Below are positions 36,001 through 42,000 of a DNA stretch of 64,000 bases, piece after piece. Position 1 is the stretch's first letter, and each line of letters starts with the position of its first letter. The stretch comes from an uncultured Verrucomicrobiae bacterium (GTDB lineage Bacteria > Verrucomicrobiota > Verrucomicrobiia > Chthoniobacterales > Terrimicrobiaceae). The DNA lies in contig CAVPOC010000006.1 in the NCBI GenBank assembly GCA_963706955.1, positions 1 through 64,000 of the forward strand. Direction: 5' to 3'. Position numbers: made by a program.

Positions 36001-39000
36001 ACAAACTGTCACCTCTATCTTCTTGTCACCGTTCCCTGCGACTCAGTCGCCGGGCGCGGGTGCTATGAACAGCCAATTTCTTGACGAAGCTTCCAAAGTG
36101 ATTCACGAGCCTCAAGTTTTAATCAACATGGTGTCGAAGCGGGTCCGCCAATTGAGCGCGGGCAGCCGCGCAATGGTTCCCGTGGAAGGTCGCATGGGTC
36201 TCGCAGATATCGCCTTGGCCGAGATCGCTCAAGGCAAACTAGTCCTCGCCGAAACGTCCAACGGCCAGGAGCCCGAAGAGTAATCCCAACGGGCGGGCGT
36301 CCGATGTCCGCGGAAATCGTAACCAATCGCAAGGCGCTCCGAGATTATCATATCTTGGAAACGTTCGAGGCGGGTATCGAACTCAAGGGCACGGAGGTTA
36401 AGTCGATTCGGTCTGGACTCGTAAACTTGCAAGGTTCCTTCGCGCGCCTTGAAGGTGGAGAGGTCTTTCTCTTTGATAGCGACATCCAGCCATACTTGCG
36501 CGCGAGCCACGAACAACATGAGCCAAGACGCCGTCGAAGGCTGCTCTTGCACCGAGTGGAGATCGACAAGTTAGCCAGCGCAACGGAACAGGCTGGTTGC
36601 ACGCTCGTTCCCTTGAAAATGTATTGGAAGCAAGGGCGTGTTAAAGTTGCCCTCGGCATTGGCAAGGGCAAAGTGGCTGCAGATAAGCGAGCCGATCTCA
36701 AAAAACGCGTGCAAGAAAGGGAGGTTCAACGTGTGCTCGCTGGACTTCAGCGCAAACGCTAGCGTAAGCGCACGGTTAACCACCGAGAACACGGAGGGAC
36801 AGAGTCTGGAAAGACAAGAGACCTCCTGAGACGATCGTCTCAAGGTCAGGGACGCGATCGTTCGAAAATCTGGCTGAATGACAGCGGAGCTTTGGACCAA
36901 GGTCATTTTATAGCATTTCCTCTGAGTTCTCTGTGTCCTCTGTGGTTATTCCGAACGAAACTCACAGTTCGAAGCTCGCGTGGCTCTCTTTGACTGGGGA
37001 CGGCAAAAAAGAGATTGTTTTTGAGGGTCCGGCAGCCATATTTGCCCACCCTCAAAGGAGCCTTAGCTCAATTGGTTAGAGCGCTGCCCTGTCACGGCAG
37101 AGGTTGCGGGTTCGAGCCCCGTAGGCTCCGCTTCATTATGTCAGCGTCGGCTCTCATTGGGACAGTGGTCCTGCGCTGCTGTGCACAGCTGGGAGTTTCT
37201 TAGTTATTAAGGCAGCGGCCACCCTCCGTAGCCGGCGCTGGGATCGAGCGGCGCAGGTGCGCGCTGATGAGTTCGCTGCGCGTATGTCTCATAGCTGACC
37301 AGCAGGACGCTCGCCTGCACAAGCGCTTTCTCGACGGGAGGTGGCTTCGGTTCGGCGAAAATGAGCCACTCGCAGGCGCGCATTGGCTCGGTCTCCACAC
37401 GTCGAAAGCTCCACCAGCTTTCGGCATCTCGCGGTATGCCGTAGATCGCACCAAAACCGGAGAAGTGGAACGCGGATTCTGCATCCTCGGCGGCCGGGCG
37501 CCCCGAATGGACGTTGAGTCGATGTTTATTTCTCATTTCCGCAAAGAGCCTGAACGAACCGCCACTCTTTTCCGTGCTCAGGCCCAACCAAAATGATTCT
37601 TGATCGGCGACGGGCACACAAAAGGTTCCCTCCTGGTCGCAGGCGACCGGCAGCATCCCAAGGCTGCGTATCGGGGTGCGGTGAATGCCTTCGGCCGGGA
37701 GGCGACAACGCTGGAAACTGACGCGCATCATCCCGAATAGACGCAGCGCGCCTTCCTCCAGGCGAGCCGCGCCTGGTTCCGGTGCGTCTCCGCTCACTCG
37801 TCAAACGAGCCCGCTTCACTCAAAAGCGATGCCAGGGCGTGCGGAGGGACTCGCAGTTGTTTCGCGAAAGTGGAAATCATTGTTCGCTGATCTCCGTCCG
37901 CGGTCGCGCTGTCAGGAGCTGCCGTGGACGCCGCGCCACCGAAAGATGCGGTGGACACGTCGAAGGGCTCGCTCGGATCGTCCGCTTTGGTGATTTGCTT
38001 GGAGGCGGTTTCCAGCCAGCTCTTTAGTTGTTTGCTGCGAGCCTGTTTCGATTTTTCATCGTAGCCCCAAACGAAATAGCCGCTTACTGGAACGACCGCG
38101 CGGACGCGCTCCCACAGCTCGATGGGCAGCAACTCGGGCTGCGTCTGGCTTGCTTCGACGATGAGCTCCCAGCTGCGGGCAAAGAGTGGCGGCTGTCGAA
38201 AAGGCTTCCTCGCCCGTAAGCTTGCCGCAGGGCAGTGCAGGGAGAGCGCCTCCACATCGGGATGGTCATCACCCACCAGCGCGCGGAGATTTGTGACCAC
38301 GCCGTCCAACAGATTGAGCTTGGACGATGGGTTGGGTCGGCGTCGTTCCTCCTGCAACAAAAGATGTCCACCTAAAATACCGGCGATCGGATTCTGAAAA
38401 TTGCGCACGAGAATCTCTTCGAGCTCCCGATTTAGAACTCGCCGCTCGTTGACCATGGCGATGCGTGCCGACTCGAGCGTTTGCTCCAATGCAACGTCGC
38501 GCTGGCTGTCGCCTACTCGTCTCATCAGTACCGTCATGCGGTTGAAACGGACATCGGCGCCAGTCTTACCGGCGGCGAGGGCCAGCAAGAATAGCTCCAC
38601 TGTCCAACCTTCCGGAACCGTAAGTGCGCCCGCTAGCATTCTATCTCGTTCGTGAGGGTAGCGCACGAAGTAGGTTCCTGCTGCGACGGGAACCTGGTCC
38701 TCTACGTAGGGGTCGCCATCGGTGGACTGTTCGGGCAAATCCTTAAGCGCACGAACGACCTGACCAGCTGAATCAAGCAACTCGGTCCCTTGCCAGGGGC
38801 GAGCTTGATAGGGAGGAGCTTGCTGACCGCTCCAGACGCGCGCCATCAGGCGAATCTCGGCCGCGAGTGGCGGATCGCCGGACGCAGAAGCGGTTGGGAC
38901 CGGTGACCCGCTTTGCCATGTCTTGAGCACGCCCCGGTGGGCTTTACTCGTCAAGCCGGTGCCAGGCAGCGGAGCGGCGGAATTGACTGCCGCCGACGCC

Positions 39001-42000
39001 ATCGAGAGATCAGCCAGAGGATCGGCGAGCGCCGGAAGAGCCTCGAAACCCTCCTGGAGCGTGGAGAAATCCAGATCCTGATCTAGCAAGATGATGGATT
39101 CGGTCACCGTGTGCCCCACACGGATTTTGAGTTTATACACGCCGAAGGGAAATCCCGCCGTCAAGACTCCCCGCGATTGCGCCTGTTTTCTCAGTGTTTG
39201 GTCGATCAGAAATATCTCTGCCGTGGGCTGACGTGGATTCACCATCAAGACGAAGTTGTCGTCAGGGCCGCCGGGTGCGACCGGCGCGCCTTTGCCGCTG
39301 ACCTGGACCAGATGGCTCTGCGGGCCGGTGACCTCAAAACCGTGTCGCAGGTGAAGCTCAGGTATCGCGACCACATATAACCCGTTCTCGAGCATCCGGT
39401 TCACCTCCGACTGAACGGGGAAGTTGTGCGAGGTTGCTGGCAGACCGCCCCACAACGTTGCTTGCTTTCCGACTGCATCCACGGGAAATGTCAAAGTTAC
39501 GGAGGTGCTCTGCTTCTGCCGTCCGGTCGCAAAGACTAGCGTTCGGTCGGCTTTCACCACCTCCGGCTCTTTGGCGATCGTCGGGTTTTTCAGGTCGTCC
39601 TCTGTCAGGTAAGCCGACATCCCATTGAGGAGGTAGTCAGCTAGGCTTCGCCCCGTGATCTGACCTTCGGAATCGACCGCTCCTCCCTTTAAGCCCTCCA
39701 GAAGCGCCCAGGTAAAGACCCCGTGAATCTCGTCGTCTTTTGCTTTAATCGGCCGCTCGACCGTCTTGAACTGCCGTGGAGCGGCGAATGCAATGAACGT
39801 GCCTCCCATTCGGCCGAACCGTGCCGTCTTCTTCATGATATTCTCCGGGTCGATGCCGAACTCACGGTCCATGCAACAATCCATCCAAAGAACGTATTCT
39901 TTGAAGTAGAAGTTGTCTTGAAACCACTCCAGCCAACCCGAGGCATAGGAATGCCAGCCGTTATCTGGAGTCGCATTCGCAACATAGAGAGCTCCACGAT
40001 AGCGGCTCGGCGAAAACCCGTGGCCGGACATATATATATAAAGCCGCCGTCCGAGCATCGGGTCATCCCGGGAGGCTCGCGGCTTCTCTTTACCGGCCTG
40101 CACGAGCGCGTCGAATGCGTCGCGCAATCGCTGCTGCTGTGGTTCGCCCTTCGTCGCTGTGGGCTCACCCCGAAAGTCGGAGGTGCAGATCAAATTGATG
40201 TGATCACGATCGTCCGGCAGGTCGCCACCATCCTTGGCTTTAAGCCAATTCGCGACCTCGAGCGCGTCCCGTTCGGAACCTTTTAAGTCCGCCGGGTCGT
40301 CCGGTGAAATCCCCAGGCCGGGATATTTTGTGATACCGACGACGATTGCGTAGTCGTCCGCGGCCATAGCAGCGTTACTCTCTCGCAGGAGAGCTTTTCG
40401 GCTACGAGTAGGCTTCCCGGACGATCTGCTTGTCCGTTTCCGTGAGATTGGTGTTGAGGCCGGCCGAGAAGCCGTCCTGCGTCCATGCGAGCGGAATGGG
40501 ATACATCATGATCGACTCGGCGTCCACTGGTGAGCTGTGAACCGAGGCGGGATCATACTTCCTGAACATGTTGTTCTCAATCGTTTCGAGATCCCAGTTG
40601 TTCGGCGGGCCTTGCAGGTCTTGAATCACGGCGTCGCGGTTCCACTGGATGGCGCGATTCGGGTTTTGGTGTTCGTGGATCAGCCCGAGCGCATGACCAA
40701 ACTCGTGCAGCACCACTCGCCGCACCTGGTCGTCGGTGGACTCGTCTGTCAACCACCCATAGTTCATTGTCGGCTCACTCGCGTCGATCTGGCGCGCGAC
40801 CGTGCCCAGGTACGACCAGGATCCCCGGCCCGGTTCGAAGGCAATCCGGATATCGGCGTCGCCCTCCTGGACGAAATCGAACCTCAGATTCGCGATGGTC
40901 GTCCAGACCAAGGCGACATTCTTCACGCGCTCCTGCAGGGCGGGGCCGCCGTCGAGGAACTTTACGGTGACGGTTGATCCGGGAGTCCATTTCAATCCGC
41001 TGAGCAGTGCGGCTTTCGTTCCTTGCGCTTTTGCACGATCTGCACCGGTTAAGCTCTCGATCCCGGGGCACATGCAGTAGTAGTTCTCTTCGTTGTTACT
41101 CATAGTGTTATAGATGGTATTTGTTTCGGCGGGGTAAATGGAGTCTGCCGGCTACCGGATAGGTCCGAGAGTAGACACACGTCATGAAAATGCCAAGCGG
41201 CCAACCAGAGAGGTGGCTCGCGAAACGATCGGCCTCGCCCGCATGCGGTTCAACAAGCACTCTCGGTTTCGTTGGCAACTTCCTGTATCGCTGCATAAGC
41301 GAAGTTTAGTCGAATGCCAATATTATACTTACGCGAGCCGCTTGCTTAATCGAAGCGATGATCATTCGCCGGCAGCTCCGAGACAGAACGCAATCAAACC
41401 CGCTGAGACCTCACGAATGACCTCTTCTGCTTCAGACCAAGGAGGTTGAAAGCTATCACCGCATTCGACAGTGAAGCCGTAGACCTTGGTCTTTGACGGA
41501 TCGGCAAAATGGCGACTGAATGCATAGTCATCGCTCGCACCCGACGTCGGATAAAGCCCGTAAGCTTGCTCAACACCGTAGTCACTACCACGAACTGCTT
41601 TCACAGCATCGTTCATTCGAGAGCTTAGTGTTTCTAGCGTCTCAAGATCCTCCGGGGGGAGGTATTCACCATATATTCGATCGTTTACACGGCCGCGGAC
41701 TCCGTCGAAGGTGCTGTTAGTAAAAGTCTGGTCTGGCTCTGTCGTCTGATTCTGGTCACTACCCCAGCCGTGTAGAATGACCGGGACCGCGCTGTGCACG
41801 TCCAGATGCCAACGAATCCGTGGAAACGCGTCGAGTAGCCAGACGACATTTCTAACCTCTGGTTCCGAGCCCGCTGTGGGGCCTCGATATACGTTCTTAT
41901 CGCAGGGATCCTCTGAGGCACTAACTCCCGAGTCCGGAGCAAATTTCGTCAAATGGTCCCACAAGAAATCGAAGTTGCGGTTGAGATCTACACCGACACA

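Follow-up and report, generated by a model that had tools for sequence, protein, structure and literature searches.

A conserved bacterial cassette of a metzincin, a caspase-like protease and a beta-sandwich protein as a possible protease-gated conflict module

Introduction

What might a bacterial cell do with a metzincin, a caspase-like protease and an all-beta protein that are encoded one after the other? Protease-gated death effectors are emerging as a main logic of bacterial immunity, and the partners known are nucleases, hydrolases and pore formers. Bacterial gasdermin and protease pairs and the TPR-CHAT (Csx29) of type III-E CRISPR have in common a protease of the caspase fold that gates its partner. 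For the pair of a caspase and an alpha/beta-hydrolase zymogen (LcCaspase/LcHydrolase), with cleavage after Arg, a role as a death module has been shown by experiment, and MBL, Pepco and EACC1 are further protease-effector modules of the same preprint (Evans et al., bioRxiv 10.1101/2025.11.14.688446).

Results

The window, that is the whole stretch of 64,000 nucleotides analysed from an uncultured Verrucomicrobiae bacterium, contains the following features at this locus.

40402-41103, minus strand: metzincin A, open reading frame of 233 aa
37794-40367, minus strand: caspase-C fusion B-C, open reading frame of 857 aa
39513..40367, minus strand: B, caspase-like (C14, clan CD) domain, residues 1-285 of the 857-aa protein, catalytic H116 and C165
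37797..39512, minus strand: C part, residues 286-857 of the 857-aa protein, described from an AF2 model and fold searches
37207-37797, minus strand: D, open reading frame of 196 aa, beta-sandwich of an unnamed family, C-terminus YGGWPLP

The three minus-strand genes of the initial annotation were recovered as open reading frames at these coordinates and are tightly packed, with a gap of 34 nt between metzincin and caspase and an overlap of 4 nt (GTGA) between the caspase stop and the start of D. The maximum value of our own hydropathy script (KD19) was 0.89 in A, 1.37 in B-C and 0.96 in D; neither a transmembrane nor a signal-like hydrophobic stretch was found by this script in the three proteins, which agrees with the claimed absence of signal peptides, and a cytoplasmic location is supported as a prediction. 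In 4 runs from soil and rhizosphere, contigs of RNA libraries touch all three genes, and one contig spans the A/B junction; this support for the cassette is weak because DNA carry-over is possible. An M14 carboxypeptidase gene lies upstream of the cassette in the window and otherwise only in a near-identical genome.

Protein A carries HEFGHALGLIHEH and the Met-turn SIMMYP. Its zinc motif reads HEFGHALGLIH and its Met-turn SIMMY, and it has an N-terminal aromatic-Cys motif (Y9-C10) and K30. Both Pfam cut-offs are passed, for Peptidase_M10 with 35.3 bits (cut-off 24) and for Astacin with 30.3 bits (cut-off 22.5), and the HExxHxxGxxH and Met-turn signature of the metzincin clan is present, so the assignment as a metzincin stands. 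Within an alignment of 74 metzincins HExxHxxGxxH is kept in 74/74, the Met-turn residues M199 and Y201 in 71/74 each, C10 in 73/74 and K/R30 in 74/74. The N-terminal Cys and an R/K-A motif, found by eye and uncounted in each of about 16 caspase-less, D-paired metzincins as well, cannot therefore be caspase-specific. The C-terminal domain of these D-paired metzincins looks by eye like what we take to be the PPC domain of secreted proteases.

The AbsR1 model NF050131 (model length 361, cut-off 650 bits) matches A with an E-value of 9e-36 and 123.6 bits over model positions 70-253 only. A was thus rejected as an AbsR1/SCO6992 equivalog on score and partial coverage, and the gap between 123.6 and 650 bits points to a paralogue, not an orthologue, of AbsR1. 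According to the SCO6992 paper (PMC9705864) the family of A is CDD cd04327, astacin/serralysin-like, and SCO6992/AbsR1 of Streptomyces coelicolor (NF050131) is a cytoplasmic, Zn-binding member of this same family with the HExxHxxGxxH motif; the beta-glucuronidase activity reported there is left unexplained by the metzincin fold. The window metzincin is shorter (233 vs 359 aa), and true AbsR1 orthologues, unlike it, have neither caspase nor D nearby.

The caspase domain begins at residue 5 of the 857-aa protein, for which the earlier count of 222 relatives was reproduced. No variation is seen in the motifs G115-H116-G117 and D163-x-C165 across 24 full-length and 29 caspase-domain sequences, which bears out the claim made for His116 and Cys165 and reproduces the His-then-Cys motif of C14 (G-H-G ... 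D/Q-x-C); the catalytic residues of both proteases, B and the metzincin, are intact and invariant. Against Pfam PF00656 (C14) the window protein scores 15.1 bits, under the cut-off of 21.4, and the relatives at L050 (32.1 bits) and L074 (32.5 bits) lie over it; a precomputed PF00656 match is present in 31 among the 120 relatives listed out of the 222. The best solved sequence matches of B are Arabidopsis metacaspase-4 and -9, the former with an E-value of 0.0013 and aligned up to SGHG, the His motif. The D-x-C motif and the metacaspase-like sequence suggest that B may cleave after Arg/Lys. The best NCBIfam match is NF047832, the 'caspase, EACC1-associated type' model (E 8.6e-10, 38.4 bits), accompanied by a weak match to PADLOC PDLC02987 (8.4e-7). 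Despite this likeness an EACC1-caspase system was rejected, with 38.4 against the 140 bits needed and with no NCBIfam or PADLOC match of A or D to an EACC1 protein. The tree of the fused-clade caspases largely follows phyla, a pattern compatible both with transfer and with long residence.

The annotation had also ascribed to the 857-aa protein the layout of MALT1, and this holds in part. An Ig-like domain directly follows the caspase in the AF2 model of residues 286-857 (pLDDT 86.4, pTM 0.87), and the His-Cys dyad, the D-x-C motif and an Ig-like beta-sandwich after the protease are shared with MALT1 and type II metacaspases (C14). However, there is no death domain and there are no N-terminal Ig domains, the post-caspase part is a separate gene in 34/79 loci, the closest solved sequences are the plant metacaspases, and the window protein, under the Pfam C14 cut-off, has three beta-sandwiches and a helical domain. 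A MALT1-type paracaspase, which has a death domain and two Ig domains at its N-terminus, was consequently rejected, the caspase starting at residue 5.

In the same model C consists of two small CnaB/transthyretin-like beta-sandwiches, a linker, a third beta-sandwich and a helical, weakly TPR-like domain, with a conserved C-terminal helix L-x-V-P-P-x-A-L. Its fold matches are the RgpB C-terminal domain (Z 8.3), Tom20 (Z 7.0), the TPR protein YrrB (Z 6.4) and Csx29 (Z 6.2), none of them decisive. C comes straight after the caspase in 79/79 loci, joined to it in 45 and in a gene of its own in 34, where the caspase measures about 350 aa; the 857-aa protein is a fusion of caspase and C. In two loci (L049 and L066) C is fused to a metzincin instead. 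The mechanically called ORF holding C of L079 has a NACHT match (1.7e-5, 25.1 bits) under the Pfam cut-off of 26.7.

The AF2 model of D (pLDDT 89.8, pTM 0.86) is an all-beta sandwich, as had been claimed, with a disordered C-terminal tail. F28-Q29-R30, G47, E67 and W70 are invariant; the extreme C-terminus, described before as invariant, is strongly conserved but not invariant, with Y/F-x-G-W-R/L-L-P in 37/45 locus D proteins and in 115/150 best representatives. The fold matches listed for this model are generic Ig-like ones (best Z 5.7), and no gasdermin is among them. The family, for which Pfam has no model, is very large: at 90% identity it still forms over 7,000 clusters, and at 50% it has 2,124 representatives. 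A structural lead from the Atlas (score 0.78, TM 0.65; a lead only) points to fungal proteins with a ubiquitin-like domain and a D-like domain.

Linkage was counted at 79 loci in species genomes, spread over about a dozen phyla, with D scored in the 73 that have enough sequence; the reported conservation across phyla holds, and no description or test of the cassette was found in the literature. Directly upstream of the caspase and on the same strand there is a metzincin in 71/79 loci, as annotated, and D follows in 44/79 loci, that is in 44/73 informative ones, a gene order far beyond chance. The unit of three genes originally described had to be redrawn: the constant core is metzincin, caspase and C, with C a gene of its own in many loci, and D is optional, 29/73 cassettes having a metzincin without D. 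Nor are the Actinomycetota limited to the first two genes, D being present there for example in L019, L024, L027, L034 and L035. Among 54 D-centred metagenome loci D stands with this metzincin family and no caspase in 20, and D-long genes have no protease nearby in 34; the association of D is with the metzincin family rather than with the caspase.

The cassette is patchy. Of 41 related genomes 4 have it, as do 3 of the 18 others within the genus; one copy is broken into three pieces, and the caspases of the other two genus genomes, G001 and G010, are only 39-46% identical to that of the window. One genome (L047) has two tandem cassettes.

Slots of the cassette are filled by different families in relatives, next to the protease (metzincin adjacent in 71/79). 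In L067, L072 and L074, which form one caspase clade, a GHSTG alpha/beta-hydrolase-like protein of about 500 aa holds the metzincin slot. The D slot is occupied by a Trypsin_2+PLD protein in L078, by a Trypsin_2+Endonuclease_NS protein in L064 and, in L062, by a mechanically called C+trypsin+PLD ORF that may be a read-through. Immediate neighbours at some loci are AbiU (1.4e-136), HerA/mad8, two TIR proteins, patatin and TPR-S, as well as integrases and a transposase; by raw count 12/82 flanking ORFs scanned are defence or mobile genes, and most immediate neighbours are housekeeping or unknown genes. No PADLOC model matched A, C or D, no att-like repeat was found at the tRNA-Asp adjoining the window cassette, and no relatives of the caspase were found in viral contigs.

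Discussion

Starting from the gene linkage, the intact catalytic motifs, the fusions between parts and the slot exchange, we tentatively propose that the cassette is a conflict module, mobile, cytoplasmic and protease-gated, in which caspase-C would be the trigger, the metzincin the latent effector and D a partner of the metzincin, a reading that we hold to be slightly more apt to fail than to stand. The window would carry a single copy of such a module, of the abortive-infection or cell-death type, that has spread horizontally. B would be a caspase-like cysteine protease activated on a trigger, and C a regulatory or sensing part that may hold the complex together. The metzincin in the effector slot would be a latent enzyme, its N-terminal Cys segment being a candidate cysteine-switch pro-segment, and D its dedicated partner, either a substrate (a second latent effector) or a regulator. 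Activated B would cut A and/or D, and the freed protease activity would lead to cell damage or growth arrest. What sets off the module, which protein is cut by which, the Cys-switch and the fate of the cell are what we infer. The conflict or cell-death cascade suggested by the initial annotation is kept here as the best reading, on account of slot exchange, the C part that appears joined to a NACHT-type NTPase in a called ORF, some defence neighbours and patchiness; the order of its steps is our construction only. Patchy presence in the genus with one decayed copy supports a conflict module. That SCO6992, which bound Zn, showed no protease activity on casein or azocasein (PMC9705864) is compatible with latency of the metzincin. 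Since D-long genes often stand without a protease and true AbsR1 orthologues without D or caspase, parts of the cassette also work outside the module. This counts against the reading, as do the mostly housekeeping or unknown neighbours, the PADLOC scan with no match for A, C or D and only a weak one for the caspase, the tRNA-Asp without an att-like repeat and the viral contigs without a relative of the caspase.

The modules of the preprint resemble the cassette in placing a caspase-like protease beside a latent enzyme or small protein, and LcCaspase/LcHydrolase has a likeness in the alpha/beta-hydrolase-like protein in the metzincin slot of three relatives, which at about 500 aa is larger than LcHydrolase (about 33 kDa from fragment sizes). 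The cassette differs in its partners, a second protease (the metzincin), the C part and the D family, none of which is among the ten families given there (Evans et al., bioRxiv 10.1101/2025.11.14.688446). A helical repeat-like domain joined to a caspase-fold protease is also the build of Csx29, whose chain is a weak fold match (Z 6.2); the cassette has no CRISPR context and the opposite domain order. As for bacterial gasdermins, the fold matches listed for D are generic Ig-like ones (best Z 5.7), with no gasdermin among them.

Small beta-barrel inhibitors are encoded alongside serralysins, and D might likewise be an intracellular inhibitor or chaperone of the metzincin, which caspase-C would destroy or displace to free the enzyme. 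The linkage of D to the metzincin with and without the caspase (20/54 D-centred and 44/73 caspase-centred loci) and its compact beta-sandwich with a flexible conserved tail speak for this. We nevertheless consider it improbable: 29/73 cassettes keep the metzincin without D, a search of one of these genomes (G043) with the A4 long-form profile gave no long-form D anywhere, many D genes have no metzincin near them, and D has more invariant polar residues than a plain inhibitor needs. The variable N-terminus of D, moreover, gives no sign of a zinc-binding plug there. Rather unlikely, in our judgement, is an endogenous regulated proteolysis in stress, development or protein turnover, in which the proteases would process cellular regulators and not act against invaders. 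Many loci do lie among housekeeping genes, the tree of the caspases agrees in part with the phyla, the fungal ubiquitin-like and D-like proteins are a lead in this direction, and overexpression of SCO6992 strongly raised antibiotic production in Streptomyces (PMC9705864). Against this weigh the patchiness within the genus with one decayed copy, the tandem cassettes in the L047 genome, and two traits typical of conflict systems, namely slots swapped with nuclease/PLD and hydrolase effectors and one C part that appears to share a called ORF with a NACHT match under the threshold.

Secreted nutritional proteases, or a RiPP-like peptide maturation cassette with D as precursor, could be read from two peptidases with an M14 carboxypeptidase upstream in the window and from the PPC-like C-terminal domain of D-paired metzincins, a resemblance judged by eye. 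Such a role is hardly credible and largely refuted by sequence: A, B-C and D show no signal or transmembrane segment by the hydropathy script, D is a well-folded 196-aa domain and not a leader-core peptide, the M14 gene is common only to a near-identical genome, and no conserved transporter or modifying enzyme was found nearby among the loci compared. Distinctly doubtful, too, is a multi-tier cascade in which C would switch on the caspase, the caspase would strip the Cys pro-segment of the metzincin and the metzincin would act on D as executioner, the metzincin-D pair being an ancient autonomous death or stress module surviving in fungi; this survival is suggested by the Atlas D-like/ubiquitin-like fusions together with a paper that lists fungal members of the metzincin family. 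Were it true, there would be a direct link from a zymogen cascade of prokaryotes to a pair in eukaryotes that is uncharacterised.

If the cassette is a protease-gated conflict module, it would add a second protease as gated effector, and so a zymogen cascade inside the bacterial cell, along with a new regulatory C module and a very large D family without a Pfam model. For the puzzling metzincin SCO6992/AbsR1, which binds zinc but showed no protease activity (PMC9705864), it further offers a rationale that can be tested. Carriers include culturable, harmless Variovorax, Cupriavidus, Pseudomonas izuensis, Arthrobacter and Nitrobacter, which make the cassette directly testable.

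Gene organisation and surroundings

The initial annotation had described a cassette of a metzincin, a paracaspase-like protease and a beta-sandwich protein ending in GGW, and its three open reading frames, all on the minus strand, were found exactly at the positions claimed, with products of 233, 857 and 196 residues. The central product is treated here as two parts, B and C:

40402-41103 (-): A, 233-aa metzincin
39513-40367 (-): B, caspase-like domain, residues 1-285 of the 857-aa protein
37797-39512 (-): C, residues 286-857 of the 857-aa protein
37207-37797 (-): D, 196-aa beta-sandwich protein

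A gap of 34 nt separates the A and caspase genes, and the stop of the caspase gene shares 4 nt with the GTG start of D. A scores above the Pfam cut-offs for Peptidase_M10 and Astacin, its top named match being the NCBIfam model for SCO6992/AbsR1, a Streptomyces coelicolor metzincin (9e-36, far under the model cut-off). The 857-aa protein scores under the Pfam C14 cut-off and matches the NCBIfam 'caspase, EACC1-associated type' (8.6e-10) and a caspase model among the PADLOC defence-system models (8.4e-7); D has no match in Pfam, NCBIfam or PADLOC. Our own script detected no hydrophobic stretch fit for a signal peptide or membrane segment in any of the three products. A, B-C and D are each single-copy in the genome. 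The neighbouring features are:

42435-42752: 105-aa ORF with no family, just upstream of the M14 gene
41362-42429 (-): M14 zinc carboxypeptidase, signal-less (Pfam 8e-55), 258 nt upstream of A on the same strand
37057-37131 (+): tRNA-Asp(GTC), 75 nt past the end of D, adjoined by smpB
36304-36762 (+): smpB, just beyond D, next to tRNA-Asp
34589-35974 (+): 461-aa ORF between ruvA-like sequence and smpB, with no Pfam family and a weak sub-threshold H-NS match

The M14 carboxypeptidase was considered as a fourth member; it is common only to a near-identical Terrimicrobium MAG (L001/L081) and absent from G001, a genome of the same genus, and therefore lies outside the conserved cassette. Integration at the tRNA-Asp was likewise rejected, no att-like direct repeat of the tRNA 3' end being present in 36900-46500. 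The GC content is 0.51-0.56 at 41000-46000 versus 0.57-0.61 across the cassette. Contigs from four soil or rhizosphere RNA libraries, belonging to at most three studies, match stretches of D, the caspase gene, A and the M14 gene with 95-100% identity, and one of them (40319-40469) spans the A/caspase junction. Other stretches of the cassette are without a contig in these libraries, a gap that carries no weight. Since such libraries may contain DNA, these contigs are only a weak sign that the cassette is transcribed.

Distribution and gene order

The linkage of A, B and C is tight and widespread. A repeat homologue search recovered the claimed number of 222 caspase relatives, and a pattern scan of one genome per species, using an alignment of 24 of them, gave 195 confirmed stretches, from which 79 loci were kept. 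These span about a dozen phyla, including Verrucomicrobiota, Alpha-, Beta-, Gamma- and Zetaproteobacteria, Actinomycetota, Acidobacteriota, Chloroflexota, Myxococcota, Bacteroidota, Planctomycetota, Gemmatimonadota, Chlorobiota and Eremiobacterota/Vulcanimicrobiota; viral contigs yielded no caspase relatives. Gene order was determined with profile HMMs on mechanically called ORFs. The metzincin lies directly upstream of the caspase, on the same strand, in 71 of the 79 loci. It is found after the C part in L065 and fused to it in L066, a contig end truncates L017 and L058, and four loci lack it (L051, L067, L072, L074). All-against-all clustering of the ORFs left D as the sole other widely common family, detected by HMM in 44 of the 79 loci. 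Six of the 35 D-less loci have less than 900 bp after the C part, and the others contain no weak D relatives (best E 0.32). The metzincin had been claimed as better conserved than the caspase, and it is the best conserved member: with the near-identical L001 left out, A has 45-67% identity to the window protein, the caspase 29-45% and D 25-40%.

The distribution of the cassette is patchy: it occurs in 4 of 41 related genomes, the window's own counted, and the genus has 18 other genomes, of which 3 carry it. Identity to the window caspase is only 39-46% for the copies in G001 and G010. In G010, which belongs to this genus, the caspase gene is broken into three (C2:52265-54865; L083-L085), with D and a portion of the metzincin still present, and this is either a decaying copy or an assembly error. 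Crystallibacter degradans (L019/L041) and Arthrobacter sp. VKM Ac-2550 (L020/L038) each carry two diverged cassette copies on one contig, about 26-32 kb apart.

The caspase domain and the C part

The 857-aa protein is a fusion of the caspase and C. Both are fused, as in the window, in 45 loci and split in 34 of the 79, where a caspase of ~350 aa is followed by a separate gene of ~500 aa homologous to residues ~290-857; frameshifts may account for a few of these splits, for example those in L006 and L053. In L049 and L066 the C part is joined instead to a C-terminal metzincin.

G115-H116-G117 and D163-x-C165-M166 are invariant in the alignment of 24 relatives. The D-x-C motif is the arrangement of Arg/Lys-specific enzymes (metacaspases, MALT1). 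As a single sequence the window caspase domain finds no match among PDB sequences, and a profile is needed; compared in this way with solved sequences, it matches best Arabidopsis metacaspase-4 (E 0.0013) and metacaspase-9 (E 0.018), in an alignment that extends as far as the catalytic His.

The AF2 model of residues 286-857, built on 31 sequences (pLDDT 86.4, pTM 0.87), opens with two small beta-sandwiches, continues after a disordered linker with a third beta-sandwich and then a helical domain, and closes with a pair of helices. The small sandwiches have matches of the CnaB/transthyretin-like fold (Z 7-8) and the helical part has TPR-like matches (Tom20, Z 7.0; YrrB, 6.4; Csx29, 6.2), middling scores that establish no fold family. 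An Atlas search with the helical domain returned weak leads only (Y4kD_C, 0.78). Profile-profile comparison revealed no relation between D and C, and prediction of a C + D complex scored 0.01, which says nothing either way on binding.

The metzincin

All 74 aligned metzincins have the zinc motif, and 71 have the Met-turn Tyr. Conservation extends to an N-terminal aromatic-Cys motif, with Cys10 kept in 73 of the 74 and the sole exception cut by a contig end, to a basic residue at position 30 with A-A-L after it (74/74), and to W39. The Cys sits at a distance of 5-15 residues from the N-terminus, ahead of a variable linker; judged by its sequence the segment looks like a short pro-segment of the cysteine-switch type. 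SCO6992 is the one studied member of this family; according to PMC9705864, it bound zinc and did not digest casein or azocasein, and its overexpression raised antibiotic production. In three alphaproteobacterial loci (L061, L070, L076; about 5738-7987) the metzincin makes up the C-terminal part of a 749-aa protein whose N-terminal domain is GDSL-lipase-like (Pfam 3.2e-9).

The D family

F28, Q29, R30, G47, E67 and W70 of D are invariant in a 37-sequence alignment. AF2 predicts a confident beta-sandwich with disordered final residues, for which only generic Ig-like/beta-sandwich fold matches were obtained (best PmoD, Z 5.7); the Foldseek rows for PDE6D/RhoGDI have E of at least 0.026 and TM of about 0.3, and comparison by sequence with solved structures gave nothing below E 0.076. 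The family has two forms. Short D proteins (~170-250 aa) carry the C-terminus Y/F-x-G-W-R/L-L-P in 37 of 45 locus proteins and 115 of the 150 best representatives, and long ones (~280-340 aa) have an insert, an internal Y-x-E-x-G-L/F-P-W-F-x-L-Y-D-E motif and a tail of ~50 aa. There are 2,124 representatives at 50% identity, and more than 7,400 clusters at 90% identity were matched among 8,000 candidates scored; every one of those listed carries the name hypothetical.

Scanning metagenome contigs with D as the centre yielded 80 loci, 54 of them with enough sequence. In 20 of the 54 the gene directly downstream of D codes for a metzincin of A's family, of ~337 aa and with the N-terminal Cys kept, and the full four-part cassette occurs in just 3 of the 80. 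Thus D goes with the metzincin family rather than with the caspase, and in many loci it stands by itself. AbsR1 orthologues proper were rejected as partners, having no D within 1.5 kb. The arrangement of a long D followed by the ~337-aa metzincin, with no caspase, is seen in L119 (956-3045) and 19 more metagenome loci (L106-L159); by eye, the C-terminal domain of this metzincin appears PPC-like. In one family member (P0288) a long D is fused to a trypsin-like domain. Atlas gave as leads, and no more, a VWA-fused cluster and Ascomycota proteins combining a ubiquitin-like with a D-like domain (feature score 0.78, TM 0.65).

A quick tree of the caspases has two well-supported halves, one with mostly split B/C genes accompanied by long D, trypsin effectors or no D, and the other, which includes the window, with mostly fused B-C genes and short D. 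Losses or gains of D must have been numerous, the well-supported branches forcing at least five changes for short D and at least nine for 'no D'. A deltaproteobacterial MAG (L047, 7227-15619) contains two complete cassettes head to tail, the first with a long D and the second with a short D ending YGGWRMP.

Slot exchange and flanking genes

In three of the loci without metzincin, its position upstream of the caspase is taken by an alpha/beta-hydrolase-like protein of ~500 aa with a GHSTG nucleophile-elbow motif:

L067, 587-2074
L072, 6517-7998
L074, 4248-5774

The hosts are Mariprofundus, Chlorobium and Chromatiales MAGs. The three proteins share 38-46% identity and have no Pfam family or PADLOC match beyond a weak one to Abhydrolase_6; their caspases form one clade in the quick tree (SH-aLRT 92). 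The D position, directly after C, is occupied by Trypsin_2+PLD in L078 and by Trypsin_2+Endonuclease_NS in L064. One mechanically called ORF spans C, trypsin and PLD in L062, where read-through in GC-rich DNA is possible, and the ORF containing C in L079, also a mechanical call with possible read-through, has a NACHT match (1.7e-5) of 25.1 bits, below the Pfam cut-off of 26.7.

Of the 132 nearest flanking ORFs we scanned 82, choosing the longer ones, and obtained Pfam matches at E <= 1e-8 for 45. Twelve are of kinds common in defence islands or mobile DNA and the rest are ordinary genes, a raw count without control set and hence context rather than proof. The twelve comprise two TIR, AIPR/AbiU, HerA-like, patatin, TPR-S, an S24 peptidase, two trypsin effectors, two integrases and a transposase. 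In two Verrucomicrobiae MAGs (L006, 11384-13432; L018, 11377-13425) D is followed by a gene for a 683-aa protein that includes a TPR-S sensor domain (PF20308, 2e-15), and one cassette copy of Arthrobacter sp. VKM Ac-2550 adjoins an AbiU gene (PADLOC 1.4e-136).

Proposed mechanism

C forms fusions with either protease and the catalytic sites of both are intact; the A and D slots are filled by alternative proteins, and the linkage of A with D is independent. We propose that C would serve as a regulatory or sensing scaffold and B as the trigger protease, probably specific for Arg/Lys, while A would be an effector kept latent by its N-terminal, Cys-bearing segment and D a partner of A, be it substrate, second effector or regulator. 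A is suggested as the effector mainly because a hydrolase-like protein takes its place, by analogy with a caspase and alpha/beta-hydrolase zymogen pair, cut after Arg, which is a demonstrated death module according to bioRxiv 10.1101/2025.11.14.688446. The same Cys and R-A motifs are present in metzincins without a caspase, which is a point against a simple model of cleavage of A at K30 by the caspase.

No description of a caspase, metzincin and D cassette was found in the literature, although subscription papers or preprint supplements could still list it. Its components are not in PADLOC 2.0, nor found by term in two Aravind-group surveys. The proposed logic is the same as that of the protease-effector modules of bioRxiv 10.1101/2025.11.14.688446; the components are not among the ten families listed in that work.
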